Source: Candidatus Pacearchaeota archaeon
GTDB taxonomy: Archaea; Nanobdellota; Nanobdellia; Pacearchaeales; DTIR01
Direction of reading: 5' to 3'
NCBI GenBank assembly: GCA_018303805.1
Contig: JAGVXL010000001.1
Span: 506,164-570,163 of the forward strand
Length of the DNA: 64,000 nucleotides
In this document: one piece after another, positions 13,508-60,285 of the stretch
Position numbering within the stretch: the stretch's first letter is position 1
How the letters are laid out: each line of letters opens with the position of its first letter
The notes under the pieces: model-generated
What the model saw: the letters and a program-made list of their open reading frames with translations, nothing else
Databases searched by the model: none
Told to the model about the DNA's origin: nothing
Program-made: the position numbers and the translations under genes

Positions 13508-14123
13508 AGATTTTTTTAAGCTTGCAAATACTGCATCTTGGCTTTCTTGTCAAGCAAATCTCTTTGCCAAAAACAACAAAACCCAAATTTATAATCCTTT
13601 TGCATCTTTCAGGCACAATTTTTTCCAAATCAATCCTGATTTTTTCAGGCTCTCTGTTTTTTGTTAAGCCGAGTCTCTGACTGCAGACAGCAACGTGAAC
13701 ATCAACAGGAATTGTTGCCCTGTTGAAGCCATAGCATAACACAACATCTGCTGTTTTGCAGCCGACACCGGGCAATTCAAGAAGTTTCTCTCTTGTGCTG
13801 GGCACTTTGCCATTGTATTTTTCCAAGAGAATTCTGCAGACTTTTTTAATATTCTTGGCTTTCTGCCTGTAAAAGCCAGAGGGCTTGATGAGCTGCTGCA
13901 GTTTTTTATTATCTAATCTTAATATTGCTTTAGGTGTTTTTGCAATCTGGAAAAGCTGTTTTGATGCCTTTTCAGTATTTTCATCCCTTGTTCTCTGGCT
14001 CAATATGGTGGCTATTAATAGCTGAAAAACATTATCATGCCAATTTCTCAAATCTAAAAGATGCTTCATGTATCTCTTTTTAAGAAATTTACAGATTATT
14101 TTTGCTTTCTCCCCCCCTTTCAT
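13470..14123 (-). CDS. nth: Endonuclease III (HhH-GPD, 4Fe-4S)
   Basis: LIATILSQRT, LPGVGCKTA, VDVHV, C-terminal CxxxxxxCxxCxxxxxC. Confidence 0.95.
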   Translation of the reverse strand: MKGGEKAKIICKFLKKRYMKHLLDLRNWHDNVFQLLIATILSQRTRDENTEKASKQLFQIAKTPKAILRLDNKKLQQLIKPSGFYRQKAKNIKKVCRILLEKYNGKVPSTREKLLELPGVGCKTADVVLCYGFNRATIPVDVHVAVCSQRLGLTKNREPEKIRIDLEKIVPERCKRIINLGFVVFGKEICLTRKPRCSICKLKKICVYYKDAISRRE

Positions 14124-31195: not shown

Positions 31196-31588
31196 ATGCC
31201 TGAAGATACCAGCGAGGTTGCAGAATTATTGTCTGAATTCAATACGAAGATTTCTGACTTGGAATCAAGGCACGAATTACTGCGGGAGAGAGTGATAAGC
31301 TTTGGGGGCGGTTTTGTTAAGAGCAGGGATGACTTAAAAAAAGAGTTGAATCTGGTAAAGGGGGATATAAGCAAGCTGCAGGATACAATAGGGAATATCC
31401 AGGAGAATTTGCGTTATATTCTTGCTCAACTGGATAATTTTGTAAGAAAAGAGCAGTTGCAGACATTTGAGAAGTACATTAAGCTCTGGGAGCCGTTAAA
31501 ATTTGCCAGAACAGAGGATGTGCAGAAAATGATTGATGATGCCCTGCGAAATGAGGCAAATGCAGGCAAGGAGGCGTTAGCAGGATAA
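31196..31588 (+). CDS. Hypothetical coiled-coil protein
   Basis: Heptad-rich ORF; no family recognised. Confidence 0.7.
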   Translation: MPEDTSEVAELLSEFNTKISDLESRHELLRERVISFGGGFVKSRDDLKKELNLVKGDISKLQDTIGNIQENLRYILAQLDNFVRKEQLQTFEKYIKLWEPLKFARTEDVQKMIDDALRNEANAGKEALAG

Positions 31589-53402: not shown

Positions 53403-53447
53403 TTAACAAGAAATATACCCATGTATCTCCAAGCCGATTTTTACCAT
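53403..53447 (-). pseudogene. gatB: Stranded 5' fragment of gatB
   Basis: MVKIGLEIHGYISC* vs intact MSNVKIGLEVHGYL; TATA-like GAAGATTTTTTAAAAT about 20 nt upstream (53467-53482). Confidence 0.8.
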
Positions 53448-53534
53448 AACAGGCCAAGCAAAAGGGATTTTAAAAAATCTTCCCTCTGAAAGAGATTAAA
53501 CCTTAGCAAGAAATCTGTCTGCTTCAGCTGATAG

Positions 53535-53681
53535 ATGAATTGTGTTAAATTATCTAAAAAGAAAGAAGGTAAGATTTATCATAAGTATGTTATTGTTTTA
53601 AAGAAAGGTTTAGTTGAAAAGGCAGGGTTCAAGGAAAGAGAGTATCTTTCAGAACACGAAGGGGGGAGGGCTATTGGATAG
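53535..53681 (+). CDS. Short AbrB-like ORF, possibly degenerate
   Basis: MNCVKLSKKKEGKIYHKYVIVLKKGLVEKAGFKE (48 aa, below track cut-off). Confidence 0.4.
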   Translation: MNCVKLSKKKEGKIYHKYVIVLKKGLVEKAGFKEREYLSEHEGGRAIG

Positions 53682-53899
53682 GGGAAGCCGAGAGATTTGA
53701 GAAGGGAGCAAGCCAGAGGGCTGATATCCTGAGAAAGCAGCGGAAGAAAAGGTAGATTTTTTCTTATCTCGTGTATTCCGTTTAGGTTGCAGGGCTTGGT
53801 TCTTGGGTTTTCGAGCCAGCAGGCGAGAAAACAGGTGGGGAAAGGGTCAAAAAGCTAAAAACAGAAAGGTTTAAATAATGTTTAAACATTGTTTAAACT

Positions 53900-54673
53900 A
53901 TGATAGAGACAGGAGTTATTAAAAATATAAGAAGATGGGGCAATTCTGCTGGGGTTCTGCTGCCTAGAGAGTGGATAGGAAAAGAAGCAAGAATAATCCT
54001 GGTGGACAGGAGCTTGGAGATAAGGAAAGAGGTTTTTGATATTCTCTCTGGCTATTTGGAAGACATTTTAGGGATATATCTCACAGGAAGCTATGCGAGA
54101 AATGAGCAAACTGAAGAGTCAGACATAGACATAATTGCTATTTCAAACAAAACAAAAAAAGAGATTATTTCAGGGAGATATCATGTTTCTATTGCAACCT
54201 TGGAGAGCATCAAAAAGACTTTAGAAACCAACCCTGAACTGATTCTGCCCAGGATAGATGAAGCCAAAATAATATTGAACAGCTCTCTGCTGGATGAATT
54301 GAAAAGCAAGAAAATAGGCAGAAATTCATTTAAAGGGTTTATAGGGGACAGCAGGAGAATAATCAGGATAAACAGGGGATTTATAGAACTGGATAAAGAA
54401 CAGGGATTTAAAGATTTAGATTCTGTTAATGTGATTTATTCAATTATTTTAAGGTTAAGGGGGGTTTTTCTTATTAACAAACTTCTTAAAAAAGAAAAAT
54501 ATAATAAGAAAGATTTTCTTCAATGGATAGAAAAAGAAGCTGGCAAAGAAGCAGAGAAAGTTTATGATACCTATCAACAAATAAGGGATGACAAGAAAGT
54601 TAAAGCAGAGATACAGATAGAAATCGCTGAAAGATTATTGAATAAACTGGAAAAAGAGGTAGATAAGCTATGA
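53900..54673 (+). CDS. Minimal nucleotidyltransferase with N-terminal AbrB-like segment
   Basis: RRWGNSAGVLLP; GSYAR..EESDIDI. Confidence 0.85.
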   Translation: MIETGVIKNIRRWGNSAGVLLPREWIGKEARIILVDRSLEIRKEVFDILSGYLEDILGIYLTGSYARNEQTEESDIDIIAISNKTKKEIISGRYHVSIATLESIKKTLETNPELILPRIDEAKIILNSSLLDELKSKKIGRNSFKGFIGDSRRIIRINRGFIELDKEQGFKDLDSVNVIYSIILRLRGVFLINKLLKKEKYNKKDFLQWIEKEAGKEAEKVYDTYQQIRDDKKVKAEIQIEIAERLLNKLEKEVDKL

Positions 54674-54852
54674 AAAGAAAAAAACGGCTGCAAAAAGGGA
54701 TTAAATCAATCAAAGAGCAGATAAATCTTCATGTTGAGAAAAAGGAGATTGCAAAAAAAAAGGGCAAAGTTGAATTGGCAGGATATTATAATAAGGAAAT
54801 AGAAAAATTAGAAGAAACAAAAGAGAAAAAAGAAAAGCAGATGGAAAGGTAG
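54670..54852 (+). CDS. Small basic helical protein
   Basis: ATGA overlap with the MNT gene. Confidence 0.6.
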   Translation: MKRKKRLQKGIKSIKEQINLHVEKKEIAKKKGKVELAGYYNKEIEKLEETKEKKEKQMER

Positions 54853-55007
54853 ATTCTGTATATTTTGAACGAGGTTTTTGATTTCTGTATTCTGTCTAAT
54901 CTGCAGGGCCGGGTTCTGAGTTTTTTAGCTGAGGAAGGGGGCTAAAAGACGGATTATGTAGACAAAAAATAGAAAGATTTAAATATGTAGTCACCTAATA
55001 TAATCAG

Positions 55008-55943
55008 ATGTATATAGAAAAAAGAAGAGTTAAAGGAAGGGTGAAGAACTATCTTGCCCATTCATTCAGGGAAGGCGGCAAAGTTCACAAGATAAGAAAA
55101 TATCTTGGGGCAGATTTGAATTCTCAAATCTTGAAAGAAAGAGTGGAAAAAGCAAGACAACTGATTCTTGAAGAGATAAATCAGTACAAAATAATAAAAG
55201 ACCCGCTGCAAACGCCTTTATCAAACGAGGAAATAGAATTAGTTGAGAACTTAGAAGCCGTAGGGGAGTTGAAGGTATTTCATCTGTCTAAGAGACAGTG
55301 GGAGCTATTTTCAGAACTGTTTACATACAGCACAAATGCCATTGAAGGAAGCGAATTAGATCGCCTAGAAGTCAAGGAAATTTTAGAGAAAGACAAATGG
55401 CCTAAAAAGTCAAAAGAAGATATTGCTGAAGCTTATGGTGTAAATGAGGCAATCCAATATATAAGAAACACAAAAGAGCATTTATCATTGAACTTGATAA
55501 AAGAGCTTCACGAAATTGTTTTTAGAAATTCAAGGAATTTTGCAGGTTATTTTAGGATGCGTGGAGAGGAGGTTGTTGTTAGAGATGGCTTGGGAAATGT
55601 TATTCACCATGGAGCCCCACAATCGCGGGTTCTCACGCTGCTGAACGAGTTAGTTGAATGGTATAGCAAGAATAGAAAAAAATATCCTGCATTGATTCTT
55701 GCTGCAGTTGTTCATAATCAGTTCGAGAATATACATCCATTCAGAGACGGTAATGGGAGAGTTGGCAGGCTGCTGCTGAATAACATACTGATTAAAAATG
55801 GATTGCCGCCACTAAATATTGATTTTAACAATAGAAAAGACTATTATCATGCACTGCAAGAGTATGAAAAGAATCATAATTTAAAACCAACAATTGACCT
55901 TCTTTTGAAGGAGTACAGGGCGTTAAGAAGGAGATTGAGGTGA
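55008..55943 (+). CDS. Fic/Doc family protein
   Basis: HPFRDGNGRVGR and STNAIEGS. Confidence 0.93.
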   Translation: MYIEKRRVKGRVKNYLAHSFREGGKVHKIRKYLGADLNSQILKERVEKARQLILEEINQYKIIKDPLQTPLSNEEIELVENLEAVGELKVFHLSKRQWELFSELFTYSTNAIEGSELDRLEVKEILEKDKWPKKSKEDIAEAYGVNEAIQYIRNTKEHLSLNLIKELHEIVFRNSRNFAGYFRMRGEEVVVRDGLGNVIHHGAPQSRVLTLLNELVEWYSKNRKKYPALILAAVVHNQFENIHPFRDGNGRVGRLLLNNILIKNGLPPLNIDFNNRKDYYHALQEYEKNHNLKPTIDLLLKEYRALRRRLR

Positions 55944-56074
55944 CTACATTCTGCAATTTTGTGGTCACCTAATCAGGCATCCTGTTTGATGTACAGGGCT
56001 TTGTTCTGCCTGTTTTTTGGTTTAGGGGTGTGAGAGCTCATAACATTTATAAATTCTATTTAATATTTGATAAT

Positions 56075-56257
56075 ATGGGAGCAAGACCCCCTGAAGCAAA
56101 AAAGAGAAGAATGGAATACAACATTGACCAGGAAATTTATGATAATTTTGTCAAGGCATGCAGCAAAAAAGGGCTTGCGCCGCAGGTTTTGATTGAGCAG
56201 TTTATGAAGAGGTTTAATCAGACAGGGCAGGCTCAGTTTTCTAGTCTCTATCCCTGA
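56075..56257 (+). CDS. Small RHH-like protein
   Basis: MEYNIDQEIYDNFVKAC..APQVLIEQFM; ATG 56075. Confidence 0.55.
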   Translation: MGARPPEAKKRRMEYNIDQEIYDNFVKACSKKGLAPQVLIEQFMKRFNQTGQAQFSSLYP

Positions 56258-56421
56258 TTTCTGCATGGCGGGGTGTGGCAGCAATGGGTTTTTTGGCAGA
56301 AAAAGGGAAGGTATCGGAAATCTCAGAAATCTTTTGATTTCTGATGGGGCGATAGGGTTAAAAAGATTACAGAAAACTGCAAAACAGATAAACTTAAAAT
56401 TAACAGATTTTTAAAAAGAGT

Positions 56422-56745
56422 ATGACTTATGCAGTTTACACAACTGAAAGTTTTGAAAAAGAGATTGAAAAGATTTCTGCATTTGAAAGAGGGATAATAC
56501 AGAAGATGTTTCTGCAGCTTAAAGAAAATCCTTATATTGGCGGCCAAATAAGATACAGGTTTTTCCGTGAGAAGAAAATAAAAGATAAAAGAATTTACTA
56601 TCTGATTTATGATGATTTAAAAGCAGTTCTTGTTGTTGCTTTTGGGGGAAAGAAGGCTCAGCAGGAAACAATTGACGAGACTGTAAAATATTTTCCAGAG
56701 TTTAGAAGATATCTTGAGAATCTTTTAAAAAGTGAAAGAAGATAA
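56422..56745 (+). CDS. RelE-like toxin
   Basis: YTTESFEKE..LKENPYIG..REK...RIYYLIY. Confidence 0.75.
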   Translation: MTYAVYTTESFEKEIEKISAFERGIIQKMFLQLKENPYIGGQIRYRFFREKKIKDKRIYYLIYDDLKAVLVVAFGGKKAQQETIDETVKYFPEFRRYLENLLKSERR

Positions 56746-56752
56746 AGAAGGA

Positions 56753-56965
56753 CTAAGCAACTCTCTTTATTCTCCCTTTTTTAACGTCTTCTAAACTGTT
56801 TTTGAACTGTTTTATCAGGTCAACATCTATTTTTTTTAAGATTACCAAATCGTTCATTTTTTCTACAGCTAAAATTGAGCCCTTGTTTATTCCAAGCTCG
56901 TTTCTTATTCTTAGCGGTATAACTACCTGCCCCTTTGAGCTTATTTTTGTTATTTCGGTTTCCAT
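56753..56965 (-). CDS. AbrB/MazE/SpoVT antitoxin
   Basis: TKISSKGQVVIPLRIRNELGI. Confidence 0.9.
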   Translation of the reverse strand: METEITKISSKGQVVIPLRIRNELGINKGSILAVEKMNDLVILKKIDVDLIKQFKNSLEDVKKGRIKRVA

Positions 56966-57065
56966 TTTGCACTCCTATGTAAGAAAGTAAGATTTTCCTA
57001 TTTTTAAAGGTTTTGGTTTTCTAATCCCTATCCTTGATTTCTTTCTGGGCTTGGTTCTTGGGATT

Positions 57066-57317
57066 TTATCTCTCATAAATATTCCTTCTATGCCCGACTT
57101 TAGTGACTTTTATTGTTTTTAAAGAAATATCAACATCAACTATTGCCCTGTAATTCCCGATTCTAAGCTTAAAGCCATCAATTTCTGCCAAATGCTCAAG
57201 AAACCTAAAAGGCTCTTCCTTGCATAACTGAAGCTTGTTCCAGATTCTTTCCTTTACTTCCCTGCCAAGCTTATTCAAATCATGCAAAGCCTTCTTTTCA
57301 AAAATAAGATGGTACAT
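57066..57317 (-). CDS. RelE/StbE toxin
   Basis: KLRIGNYRAI..VGHRRNIY. Confidence 0.9.
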   Translation of the reverse strand: MYHLIFEKKALHDLNKLGREVKERIWNKLQLCKEEPFRFLEHLAEIDGFKLRIGNYRAIVDVDISLKTIKVTKVGHRRNIYER

Positions 57318-57320
57318 GCC

Positions 57321-57557
57321 TTAAAGCCCAAGAATTTTCTTTGCCTCTTCTTCTGTGTAGAACTCGCCTTTTTTAATCCTTTCTCTGGCTTCCTTGATTT
57401 CAAGAATAGTCTTTTGGCTTAATTTGGGCTCTTTCTCGCACATTTTTGCAAGGTATAGCAGCTTTCTGACTAGCTCATCATAGCTCTCGCTCTTGTATTG
57501 CCTGAACCCGTCAAGTTCCACTTTTGTTGCAGGATTTAATTTTATTGTTGTTTCCAT
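57321..57557 (-). CDS. Cognate antitoxin of RelE
   Basis: ETTIKLN..ESYDELVRKL..GEFYTEEEAKKILGL; 3 nt upstream of the toxin. Confidence 0.8.
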   Translation of the reverse strand: METTIKLNPATKVELDGFRQYKSESYDELVRKLLYLAKMCEKEPKLSQKTILEIKEARERIKKGEFYTEEEAKKILGL

Positions 57558-57723
57558 ATACTAAGGTATACTTAAGTATACTATTTAAAGCTTTCGGTGA
57601 TTATTTTTATCCCTATCCCTGATTTAATCCTGGGGGGTGGCTGCAGTGGGGTTCTGACAGGGAAAGCGGTGGCGAAACTTTAAATATTGGGGTTGTTCTT
57701 AAAAAAATAATCAGTTAATAGAT

Positions 57724-57795
57724 GGGCCTGTAGTATAATGGCTATTATCCTCCGTTTGCAACGAAGAGATTCGAGTTCAATTCTCGACAGGTCCA
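57724..57795 (+). tRNA. tRNA-Ala(TGC), intronless
   Basis: Acceptor GGGCCTG/CAGGTCC-A with G3:U70; loop TT-TGC-AA; one C:A mismatch in the anticodon stem. Confidence 0.88.
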
Positions 57796-57909
57796 TAATT
57801 GAGCCCGTGGGTTTTTTGGGATTGAGCCGATGGGTTTTTAAACTCTATCTCATATAAAAAATAATAAGGGGATGGTTTCTGCTCAGAGAATTTCTGGGAA
57901 TGTTAAAAA

Positions 57910-58302
57910 ATGAATAAATTTAGGAAAACCTTAAGTACATTATTGATTCCTACAATTATAAGTCTAACTGGTTGTTTTCCTGTATCATCCTCTGACTTAG
58001 AAGGAATTATCAAAGGAGACAAAGTAAGACTTGTTAGAAAGAATCTATGTGCCAGTCCAGTACATACTACTTATCTTTATGCAACTAAAAGCAAAAAGAA
58101 AGAAATATGCTACGTTGATTATGATAATGATTTGAAATTAGATAATGTTAGAGTTTGTATCCCATTTGAAGAAATGAAGTTTTACGATATAAACGACCCA
58201 TTAGATAGACCAATCATGGAAGAGGCCCAAAAACAATTTGAAGAGTATATGAAGATTATCACCCCATATTTACAAAGCAAGGAAAAAGCCAATTTAAGAT
58301 AA
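57910..58302 (+). CDS. Putative lipoprotein, hypothetical
   Basis: Basic N-terminus, hydrophobic stretch, lipobox-like LTGC. Confidence 0.6.
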   Translation: MNKFRKTLSTLLIPTIISLTGCFPVSSSDLEGIIKGDKVRLVRKNLCASPVHTTYLYATKSKKKEICYVDYDNDLKLDNVRVCIPFEEMKFYDINDPLDRPIMEEAQKQFEEYMKIITPYLQSKEKANLR

Positions 58303-58468
58303 ATTATAGATTTCTTCTAGCTCTATCAAAGTATCTCTTTTAGCAGTTATATAGCAGGGTTTTGTTCATTGGGAAACCGAGCCGAACTGCAGTGAGGCGA
58401 GGTTTGGGGCGAGAAAACAGGCTGGGCAGGAAATAAACCTTTAAATATTTTAGTTTCTTGAGGACCAT

Positions 58469-59412: not shown

Positions 59413-60285
59413 TTAATCCAGCATCCCCCACATGATGCTTCTTGCTTGCTTGGTGAGATGGGGATTTTTTCCTATGGATTTCAGGAATTTTGGGATGATT
59501 GTGTCAAGATTGTTAATTTCAGAGGGTCTTATCGGAAGGAAAGGAATGCCATAGTATCTGTAAGCCCTGTTCTTTTTTATTGTTCCGCTTCTGCTGTCTC
59601 GGTATTGCCCATACATCTCAATTATGCAGTTGTATTCAGGAAGGAAGAAATCAGGAACTGCAAAAACAATTCCGAGTTTCTTGAAATCTGGAAAGACAAG
59701 CATCTTGCCCTCATAGAAATAGGCTGTCTTGTTCTTGAAAAGCCAGTTTGCTATCATCACCTCATACAGGCTTCTGACTTCCTCTTTTCTCATTGTGATT
59801 TTGCTTAATTTCTTTTTGTTGCCCTTGCCCTGCTCAATGTATCTCATTGCATTCTTGTGCTTTATCAGCCATGCAATGAACCTCTTTCTTGAAGCTTCCC
59901 TTAAATTTGGGTGGTTTTTGTAGACTTCTTTTCCTATTCTGCTTGCCCTTTCCCTTTTCTCTGGATTTTTCCATAATTCAATAAGGAATTTTTTGTGTGC
60001 TTCTACTTTTTCAGGATGCTTTTTCCAGTATTTCTTCATGTAAATGGAATGCTGCTTTTTCAGTTCTGGATGCTGTTTCAGGAGTTTTATCTTGGAAATG
60101 CTGATTTTCTTTTTTATTGTCTTGCTGAGATGAATGCCTTTTCTATGGCTCTTTGTTATGCCCAGCTTGAATAATAACTTTTTTGTCCTGCTTTCCCTTT
60201 TTCTTGATGCTAAAGGCATGGGCTTGTTCTTGTTCCAAGGCTTCATGCCTTTAAGAAATCTGCCGAGTTTGTCTCTTGACTGCAT
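59413..60285 (-). CDS. Putative endonuclease: NUMOD3-like repeats plus PD-(D/E)xK/Vsr-like domain
   Basis: RDKLGRFLKG.KPWNK, HLSKTIKKKIS; RSLYE..IAN.L, VPDFFLPEYNCIIEMYG. Confidence 0.65.
   Translation of the reverse strand: MQSRDKLGRFLKGMKPWNKNKPMPLASRKRESRTKKLLFKLGITKSHRKGIHLSKTIKKKISISKIKLLKQHPELKKQHSIYMKKYWKKHPEKVEAHKKFLIELWKNPEKRERASRIGKEVYKNHPNLREASRKRFIAWLIKHKNAMRYIEQGKGNKKKLSKITMRKEEVRSLYEVMIANWLFKNKTAYFYEGKMLVFPDFKKLGIVFAVPDFFLPEYNCIIEMYGQYRDSRSGTIKKNRAYRYYGIPFLPIRPSEINNLDTIIPKFLKSIGKNPHLTKQARSIMWGMLD

Follow-up and report, generated by a model that had tools for sequence, protein, structure and literature searches.

The stretch of DNA analysed here, which is referred to as the window, comprises 64,000 nt (C1:506164-570163) of the 575,132-bp single-contig genome (G000; 38% GC) of a tiny groundwater archaeon placed in Woesearchaeota. 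The genome is 77% complete, and several groundwater assemblies contain the same genome. Between 53.7 and 58.4 kb of the window, short accessory genes, among them predicted toxin-antitoxin (TA), Fic and MNT-like nucleotidyltransferase genes, are separated by a degenerate, G-rich sequence of 60-150 nt, here called the linker. It lies on the + strand in seven of nine intergenic gaps, independent of gene direction (Table 1). The initial annotation of this region had placed such a motif in nearly every gap; this holds except for the 7-nt convergent gap at 56746-56752, where no copy is present, and for 57797-57909, where only fragments were found. The description as a cassette-like array is retained, as a single repeat family that always points the same way separates TA, Fic and MNT units, which carry promoters and may face in either direction. 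A separate promoter for each unit had also been proposed, and an archaeal B recognition element (BRE)/TATA box (AAAGGTTTAAATA) indeed lies 29-30 nt before each ATG. This placement suggests that the mRNAs of G000 are leaderless.

The cargo was assigned with profile searches. The cassette 1 protein combines NTP_transf_2 and DUF2080 in Pfam (E=1.6e-8), which makes it a candidate nucleotidyltransferase. Further Pfam matches predict Fic (2e-19), ParE_toxin (1.6e-8 and 2e-4), MazE_antitoxin (1.6e-7), and DUF7557 (5e-6) proteins, and PADLOC matched the 311-aa Fic protein (Fic311) to SoFic (4.6e-34). The ParG match of the RHH gene is weak (2e-3). The left border of the island can be recognised at 53408-53481 (- strand), where 74 nt match the 5' end of gatB in G001, a genome of the same genus, with 80% identity. 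This stretch is the displaced original gatB start, and the island therefore begins directly after it.

Table 1. Linkers, cassettes, and adjoining genes of the array, in window coordinates.
Feature	Position	Strand	Description
Linker 1	53759-53866	+	START box, core TGCAGGGCTTGGTTCTTGGG, END GGGGAAAGGGTCAAAAAG
Linker 1 hairpin	53808-53831	+	TTTTCGAGCC-AGCA-GGCGAGAAAA
Cassette 1	53900-54852	+	TATA at 53870; gene pair conserved in G004
Cassette 1, MNT-like gene	53900-54673	+	AbrB/DUF2080-nucleotidyltransferase (predicted), 257 aa
Cassette 1, second gene	54670-54852	+	60-aa coiled-coil, overlaps MNT-like gene
Linker 2	54873-54955	+	11-bp-arm inverted repeat GTTTTTTAGCT..GGCTAAAAGAC at 54920-54950
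Cassette 2	54956-55969	+	Fic/SoFic-like, 311 aa, gene 55008-55943, TATA at 54978
Linker 3	55970-56033	+	Short: START, core, T6 run
Cassette 3	56034-56257	+	Orphan RHH/ParG-like, 60 aa, gene 56075-56257, TATA at 56046
Linker 4	56240-56390	+	Variant CTATCCCTGATTT type; inverted repeat 56321-56346; END GGGGCGATAGGGTTAAAAAG
Cassette 4a	56422-56745	+	ParE/RelE-like, 107 aa, TATA at 56393
Cassette 4b	56753-56965	-	AbrB/MazE-fold, 70 aa, convergent, own promoter near 57001
Linker 5	57014-57065	+	Truncated directly past core; abuts inverted RelE stop codon
Cassette 5	57066-57597	-	Promoter TATA 57582-57589 (+ strand coordinates)
Cassette 5, RelE/ParE	57066-57317	-	83 aa
Cassette 5, DUF7557 antitoxin	57321-57557	-	78 aa
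Linker 6	57598-57678	+	Variant type; followed by the tRNA gene's TATA box at 57679
tRNA-Ala(UGC)	57723-57796	+	Within array; sole gene with this anticodon among 14 ARAGORN tRNAs
Linker-like fragments	57798-57839		ATTGAGCC(C/G)(G/A)TGGGTTTTT, two copies, 5' of lipoprotein gene
Predicted lipoprotein	57910-58302	+	130 aa, without family match
Linker 7	58318-58435	+	Type B START CTCTATCAAAGTATC..AGCAGTTATATAGCAGGG; 74% identical to G004 copy; hairpin 58374-58405
72-aa membrane protein gene			3' of Linker 7; TATA at 58440

The anatomy of the linker was derived from an alignment of 20 copies from three genomes. In the 5' to 3' direction it consists of a START box (TTTCTAATC..T.TATTCCGTTTA), a core (TGCAGGGCTGGGTTCTGGGG), in most cases 4-7 consecutive T (seven of the ten G000 copies), a G-rich tract of very variable length that carries GGCGA(G/T) motifs, and a promoter-like END, which reads either GGGAAAGGGTTAAAAAG or GGTGATTAAAGGTTTTAAGCGATGGGTTTTTATA. 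Eight of the ten G000 copies lie upstream of a same-strand promoter and gene. In a second island of the genome (island 2) and in G004, a genome of the same family, the END is the promoter of the next gene. Three types can be distinguished: type A has TATTCCGTTTA, type B contains a 7-nt insertion that results in AGCAGTTATAGAGCAGGG, and type C, found in G000 only, has CTATCCCTGATTT. Types A and B are common to different genera, and the subtypes as well as a promoter module, GGTGATTAAAGGTTTTAAGCGATGGGTTTTTAT, are kept between genera whose core synonymous sites are saturated.

Several counts show that the repeat is real. The pattern GCAGGGYYKKGTTCW with at most one mismatch has four matches in the window (53789, 54903, 55993, and 58354) versus 0.13 expected, all of them intergenic and on the + strand, and a 20-mer of the core is present twice (53788 and 57043) versus 0 expected. 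A repeat search returned one family (53772/54886/55976/57027) and one variant (56245/57610). The similarities listed in the initial annotation were recovered, as the copies at 53789 and 58354 share CGAGCC...GGCGAGAAAACAGG and the copy at 57021-57062 links ATCCYTGATTT (also at 56250 and 57615) to GGGCTTGGTTCTTGGG. An nhmmer profile built from the ten G000 copies and searched with --max across the whole 575-kb genome returned only these ten copies at E-values of 1e-11 to 4e-3, scores that are circular because the matches are the profile's own training copies; the next match had E=0.46. Seven of the ten lie on the + strand at 53.76-58.43 kb of the window and three on the - strand at genome positions 455.99-456.94 kb. 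Models R1 and R2 together with motif scans added two weaker copies at genome positions 29.6 and 31.4 kb.

The linker has a narrow distribution. The genome holds about 12 copies, all within three accessory islands that amount to ~15 kb; the strong copies are all in two islands and the weaker ones in the third, and core intergenic DNA has none. Orientation is uniform at each locus (7/7, 3/3, 5/5, and 5/5 copies), and cassettes occur in either orientation, with RelBE, AbrB, and a 283-aa Fic gene of island 2 (Fic283) inverted. Scans with R1 over 151 genomes and with R2 over 401 genomes of the order found the linker in no genomes other than G000, G001, and G004, apart from a weak signal in G003. 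The copies of G001 and G004 likewise form same-strand arrays among TA, Fic, MNT, PD-(D/E)XK, NYN, HNH, and restriction-modification genes. In a collection of genome contigs, genuine matches to the pattern TATTCCGTTTANGNTGCRGGG were restricted to G001 and G004; its ten matches in metagenome contigs were all attributed to chance by model R1, and neither this pattern nor the promoter-module pattern had any match in viral contigs. A general intergenic terminator or regulator site, which had been named at the outset as an explanation that would overturn the cassette view, can be dismissed: the motif is limited to three islands of this genome and to one family of Woesearchaeota.

Comparison with relatives reveals how the cargo changes. 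Fic311, RHH, and RelBE are common to G000 and G001, and their order and neighbours differ. The order in G000 is MNT, Fic, RHH, ParE-like, AbrB, RelBE, and tRNA, and that in G001 is a Doc-like pair, RHH, Zn-ribbon, membrane protein, RelBE, Fic, PD-(D/E)XK, and NYN. Alignment by blastn gave three blocks, with nucleotide identities to G001 of 85.6% for Fic311 (54956-55969), 88.2% for RHH (56034-56244), and 91.9% for RelBE (57066-57597). These values of 86-92% compare with 75-77% for gatB and the flanking genes, and with a core identity of 76%. The blocks begin a few nucleotides 5' of the BRE/TATA box and finish at or just past the stop codon, so that they abut the END and START of the linkers; outside them, linkers are similar at the family level only. 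The same breakpoint pattern was found for Fic283 between G000 and G004. Cassette order is the same in 14 contigs at the strain level and differs at the species level, where the breaks fall at linker edges. Homologues of Fic311 in three other DPANN contigs (Nanoarchaeota, Pacearchaeota, and one metagenome contig) stand in accessory contexts, in which neither the linker nor an equivalent repeat was found.

Synonymous divergence (dS) between G000 and G001 separates two of the three units from their surroundings. It is 1.63 for gatB and 0.82-1.03 for two flanking genes, versus 0.81 for Fic311, 0.44 for RelE, 0.39 for RHH, and 0.25 for RelB, with large errors owing to the shortness of the cassette genes. 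Because their dS lies far below that of flanking and core genes, RelBE and RHH are younger than their surroundings, for which lateral exchange is the best explanation.

We propose, with a probability of roughly 50%, that the linker is a directional element specific to this lineage, which forms the junctions of a modular accessory island and takes part in its expression, and that it is neither a classical integron nor visibly active. In favour of this are the restricted distribution, the uniform linker orientation beside cassettes of either direction, the breakpoints at linker edges, the low dS of RelBE and RHH, the variable cargo of island 2 between conserved flanks, the conservation of linker subtypes between genera, and XerA-family genes 0.7-7 kb from linkers in all three genomes. 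Self-contained units that extend from the BRE/TATA box to the stop codon (TA pairs, Fic, MNT, and nucleases) would be located between one END and the next START, in either orientation. Over evolutionary time, these units would be exchanged, reordered, and passed between related species with breakpoints at the linker edges, and the linkers would remain in place as a scaffold while the units change. The linker itself would be a recombination site, used either through homology of its START and END boxes or through catalysis by a XerA-family recombinase. It might double as a terminator-promoter adaptor, in which the T-run could stop transcription of the preceding gene.

A number of observations weigh against this proposal. 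The dS of Fic311 (0.81) equals that of the flanking genes, and Fic311 may therefore simply be vertical. All 14 contigs with the exact RelB or Fic protein, which come from several assemblies and are 97-100% identical, are colinear with the window, and no excision, insertion, or reshuffling was seen among them, including the 97-98% variants. Conservation above the family level does not extend from a cassette into any part of the linkers beside it, so that the cassettes are a poor fit to a single-crossover model in which site and cassette move together. Two linkers are on average 54% identical if they come from one genome and 53% if they come from different genomes; the sites of chromosomal integrons behave differently in this respect. 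A tandem linker pair without an intervening gene is kept between genera and is therefore not a fresh excision scar. Together, the colinear contigs, the linker that does not travel, and the conserved gene-less pair argue against a site-plus-ORF (open reading frame) model and against high present activity. Moreover, the T-run and the promoter-like modules could explain the sequence conservation without any role in recombination, and since only three genomes carry the linker family, independent comparisons are few. The gene-capture platform suggested in the initial annotation is an inference, and no sign of ongoing capture was seen. That annotation had given two grounds on which it should be abandoned, a motif common between ordinary genes and a gene order fixed across relatives, and because the order is fixed in the 14 contigs, one half of this pair applies at the strain level.

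It is possible, although we hold this view only tentatively, that the linker is an expression adaptor and nothing else, that is, a T-run terminator with an upstream element or promoter that spread in islands by local duplication together with genes. The reordering would then be ordinary island scrambling, and the breakpoints would look sharp since nothing else in the spacers is conserved. The T-runs after the core, the position of most copies upstream of a same-strand promoter and gene, and the stability of the array across samples all fit such an adaptor, and the END and GGTGATTAAAGG..GGGTTTTTATA modules resemble BRE/TATA and drive the next gene in island 2 and G004. However, the linker retains its orientation beside inverted units, where its promoter end faces the 3' end of a gene (57014-57065; Fic283), and termination by oligo-T needs no conserved START and core of 40 nt. 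An adaptor would also leave unexplained that core intergenic regions are all without a linker and that the dS values of RelBE and RHH make these units younger than their surroundings.

A bolder version of the junction element, which we regard as doubtful, is an independently arisen gene-cassette platform in which promoter-bearing cassettes are inserted, inverted, and exchanged between unstructured directional linkers. A XerA-family recombinase, or another host enzyme, would recognise the START and END boxes or a hairpin on the G-rich strand. If true, this would indicate an archaeal analogue of integrons that has not yet been described.

The hairpin in question, which the G-rich tract can form, is present in some copies only. 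It lies on the + strand and has a conserved 2x2 tandem G.A internal loop and an AGCA-type loop (window 53808-53831 and 58374-58405; L030 1439, 6225, 7026, and 8234), and its outer stems covary (TTTTC/GAAAA versus AAACC/GGTTT). The G.A pairs indicate that folding would occur in a single strand, either RNA or ssDNA, and not as a double-stranded palindrome. A strict pattern of this hairpin had three matches in the genome versus ~1 expected, of which two are in linkers of the window array. For the linker as a whole, RNAalifold found 0 consensus pairs in ten copies, single copies folded no better than shuffled sequence (DNA fold z-scores of -2.2 to +0.7 on both strands), and Rfam in E-value mode over 14 kb returned only the tRNA. 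Readings of the linker as a C/D-box small RNA or as a G-quadruplex were dropped, as the boxes are inconsistent.

Symmetric sites were sought as well. Inverted repeats with 11-bp arms were found three times in 18 linkers versus 2.1 expected; two of them are at homologous positions, with spacers of 4 and 9 nt, and most copies are without such a repeat. Linkers have no overall enrichment of dif-like inverted repeats, a genome-wide list of 11-bp-arm inverted repeats yielded neither the dif site of G000 nor a candidate related to the linker, and no terminal inverted repeats were found in the linkers. GC skew is dominated by the gene strand and gave no usable origin or terminus signal that would account for linker polarity.

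These results bear on a non-autonomous mobile repeat, such as a miniature inverted-repeat transposable element (MITE) or a repetitive extragenic palindrome (REP), which would insert between genes by itself. Multiple degenerate copies with defined START and END boxes, subtypes common to different genera, and tandem pairs without a gene between them are what such a repeat would leave. Terminal inverted repeats and a significant fold are absent, though, and no pair of occupied and empty sites was found; no transposase was identified, although no dedicated search for one was made; and the copies are restricted to ~15 kb of islands in a 575-kb genome with uniform orientation at each locus. We consider this explanation very unlikely. 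Bacterial mycobacterial interspersed repetitive units (MIRU) and REP/bacterial interspersed mosaic elements (BIME) are also short non-coding intergenic repeats of fixed polarity that may act on transcription, but they are dispersed genome-wide, whereas all copies of the linker are in accessory islands, and rearrangement breakpoints fall at them.

Tests for an integron gave the following picture. If the linker is counted as a site, the array holds at least two same-orientation sites less than 4 kb apart that bound short ORFs, since its seven copies, all on the + strand, are spaced by 0.2-1.1 kb. A crude box scan for attC pairs, R''(RYYYAAC)/R'(GTTRRRY), found none at 53.3-58.7 kb; the whole genome has 16 such pairs, or 0.15 per 5.4 kb. 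The claim that the repeats are not attC-like palindromes is thus correct as regards boxes and consensus fold, and needs to be amended for the small hairpin of some copies. No integrase lies in the window, as had been stated. The single PF00589 gene of G000 (genome 460847-461683) encodes XerA (278 aa, without an extra domain), which scores 253 bits against NF040815 (cut-off 220) and 229 bits, in two pieces, against the integron-integrase model TIGR02249 (cut-off 265). The lack of IntI in G000 is not absolute, because the genome is incomplete. The three genomes with linkers have five tyrosine recombinase genes, each of them 0.7-7 kb from a linker; because synteny is shared, these proximities are not independent.

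A cluster of attC sites lacking integrase (CALIN), i.e., a classical integron cassette array without its integrase, would account for short, TA-rich accessory genes with a repeat of constant orientation between them. Published archaeal integrons, among them integrons of Nanoarchaeota, possess IntI and attC sites with canonical folds (Ghaly et al. 2022, PMC9668308). In the present region there is no R''/R' pair, no consensus structure or fold z-score to match, and no tyrosine recombinase other than XerA, which falls above the NF040815 and below the TIGR02249 cut-off, and each cassette has its own promoter. The probability of a CALIN is close to negligible. The resemblance of the array to sedentary chromosomal integrons and CALINs (PMC9668308) extends to rows of short TA-rich genes with one single-orientation repeat family, to the inversion of some cassettes, and to cassettes that relatives share in different order. 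In contrast to these systems, the linkers have neither attC boxes nor a single-strand fold, IntI is absent, every unit has a promoter, linkers do not travel with the ORF and are not more alike within a genome, and no strain-level variation was seen.

Xer/dif modules, such as the pdif modules of Acinetobacter plasmids and integrative mobile elements exploiting Xer (IMEX), are a second point of comparison. They are small, often TA-bearing modules that are bounded by short sites and have no dedicated integrase; here too no tyrosine recombinase is at hand other than the host's own Xer-family enzyme, the genes for which are near the repeats. A conserved 11-6-11 inverted repeat of the dif kind was not apparent among the linkers, and their orientation is direct and not alternating. 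Binding by XerA is hypothetical.

The tRNA gene requires separate consideration. The initial annotation had put the array next to tRNA-Ala, but tRNA-Ala(UGC) sits inside it; a search for its context in relatives gave no match at E<=1e-8. Because of this position, one could imagine elements that integrated successively at a tRNA or other RNA gene, with the repeats as att sites copied from tRNA ends, and the core GCAGGGCT is identical to the 3' acceptor strand of tRNA-Gln(CUG), whose 5' end and leader read ACAGGGCTATGTTCTTGGG in antisense. However, linkers share only 8-9-mers with tRNA-Gln, tRNA-Ala(GGC), and tRNA-Ala(UGC), and at most 8-9 nt with any tRNA; tRNA-Gln is 440 kb distant; no tRNA was found in the four arrays of G001 and G004 or in island 2; and the repeats, at 60-150 nt, have an internal architecture of their own. 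This explanation is weakly refuted here, and we judge it highly improbable. Tandem accretions and cis-mobilizable elements (CIMEs) at tRNA genes are similar in their direct repeats between small inserted units without an integrase and in the tRNA within the array, and they differ in that linkers are not copies of tRNA ends and that arrays in relatives and in island 2 are without a tRNA.

DPANN archaea have tiny genomes in which islands of TA and defence genes are nevertheless kept. A directional junction element that is conserved exactly where cassettes swap between species would provide a handle on how such islands are built and renewed, and would extend the integron-type layout of gene capture beyond IntI and attC. 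As a candidate recombination or expression signal, the linker can be tested in vitro with the host XerA. If it is merely a terminator-promoter adaptor, it would still be a compact, portable expression module for archaea and a marker of accessory islands in this lineage.

The other two islands of G000 are outside the window. Island 2 has its three linkers on the - strand (genome 455.99-456.94 kb) together with a NOV_C-like gene, PIN-VapB, and Fic283. Its flanks, a 69-aa gene and a DEAD-box helicase gene, are conserved; the cargo of the interval differs in G000, G001, and G004, and linkers are present in this hot spot in all three genomes. Part of this cargo in G001 is a second XerA-like recombinase, which is accompanied by an HNH gene and directly adjoins a linker truncated at GATTAAAG. 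Island 3 (C1:26.6-32.5 kb), also with - strand linkers, contains an MNT paralogue, a linker (31433-31480), an ABC transporter whose final codons read like the linker core, a half linker, an 87-aa gene orthologous to G001 L030 10658-10921, and a 915-aa restriction-like gene, in this order.

Further features were noted at these loci. At L032 8648-10335 (G001 C13), the second XerA-like recombinase and the HNH endonuclease form an inserted block with a 176-aa protein, whose C-terminus, KSPLDSL, resembles XerA C-termini. The promoter of this recombinase is flanked by the inverted repeat ATTAGGCGAAG / CTTCGCCTAAT, and the motif TTAGGCGA recurs in linkers. At L031 13480-13880 (G004 C1), a scaffold gap with an N run at 13717-13726 separates two alternative junctions 3' of the same 112-aa gene, one with two linkers and the other with a single, hybrid-looking linker. 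They may reflect population heterogeneity at linkers or an assembly artefact. In G000 and G004, the margins of linker arrays encode a family of 217-326-aa proteins (59413-60285 on the - strand; L031 3534-4187 and 14679-15659). Its members begin with basic modules that are repeated and carry a PD-(D/E)XK-like motif (VPDF..E.YG) at the C-terminus; they resemble homing endonucleases and match no Pfam family.

Around the cassettes themselves, TGTAG(A/T)CAC boxes are present both 5' and 3' of Fic311 (54957-54996 and 55938-55978), and the promoter of Fic283 (L001 8945-9003) is flanked by TTACCATTACA / TGTAATGGTAA. These are probably operator sites for autoregulation. An 11-bp hairpin spans the Fic311 stop codon, and the MNT promoter carries a TTTAAAC palindrome at 53869-53898. 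Short direct repeats that border cassettes (ATTTTATCTC/ATTTTTATCCC around RelBE and TGTAGACA around Fic) were rejected as target-site duplications; they are AT-rich and partly coding or operator-like. A hairpin family of the form CCCCGAAAATCT-N-AGATTTTCGCGG is scattered across the whole genome, for example at 249708, 270140, 303922, 467313, and 503372.

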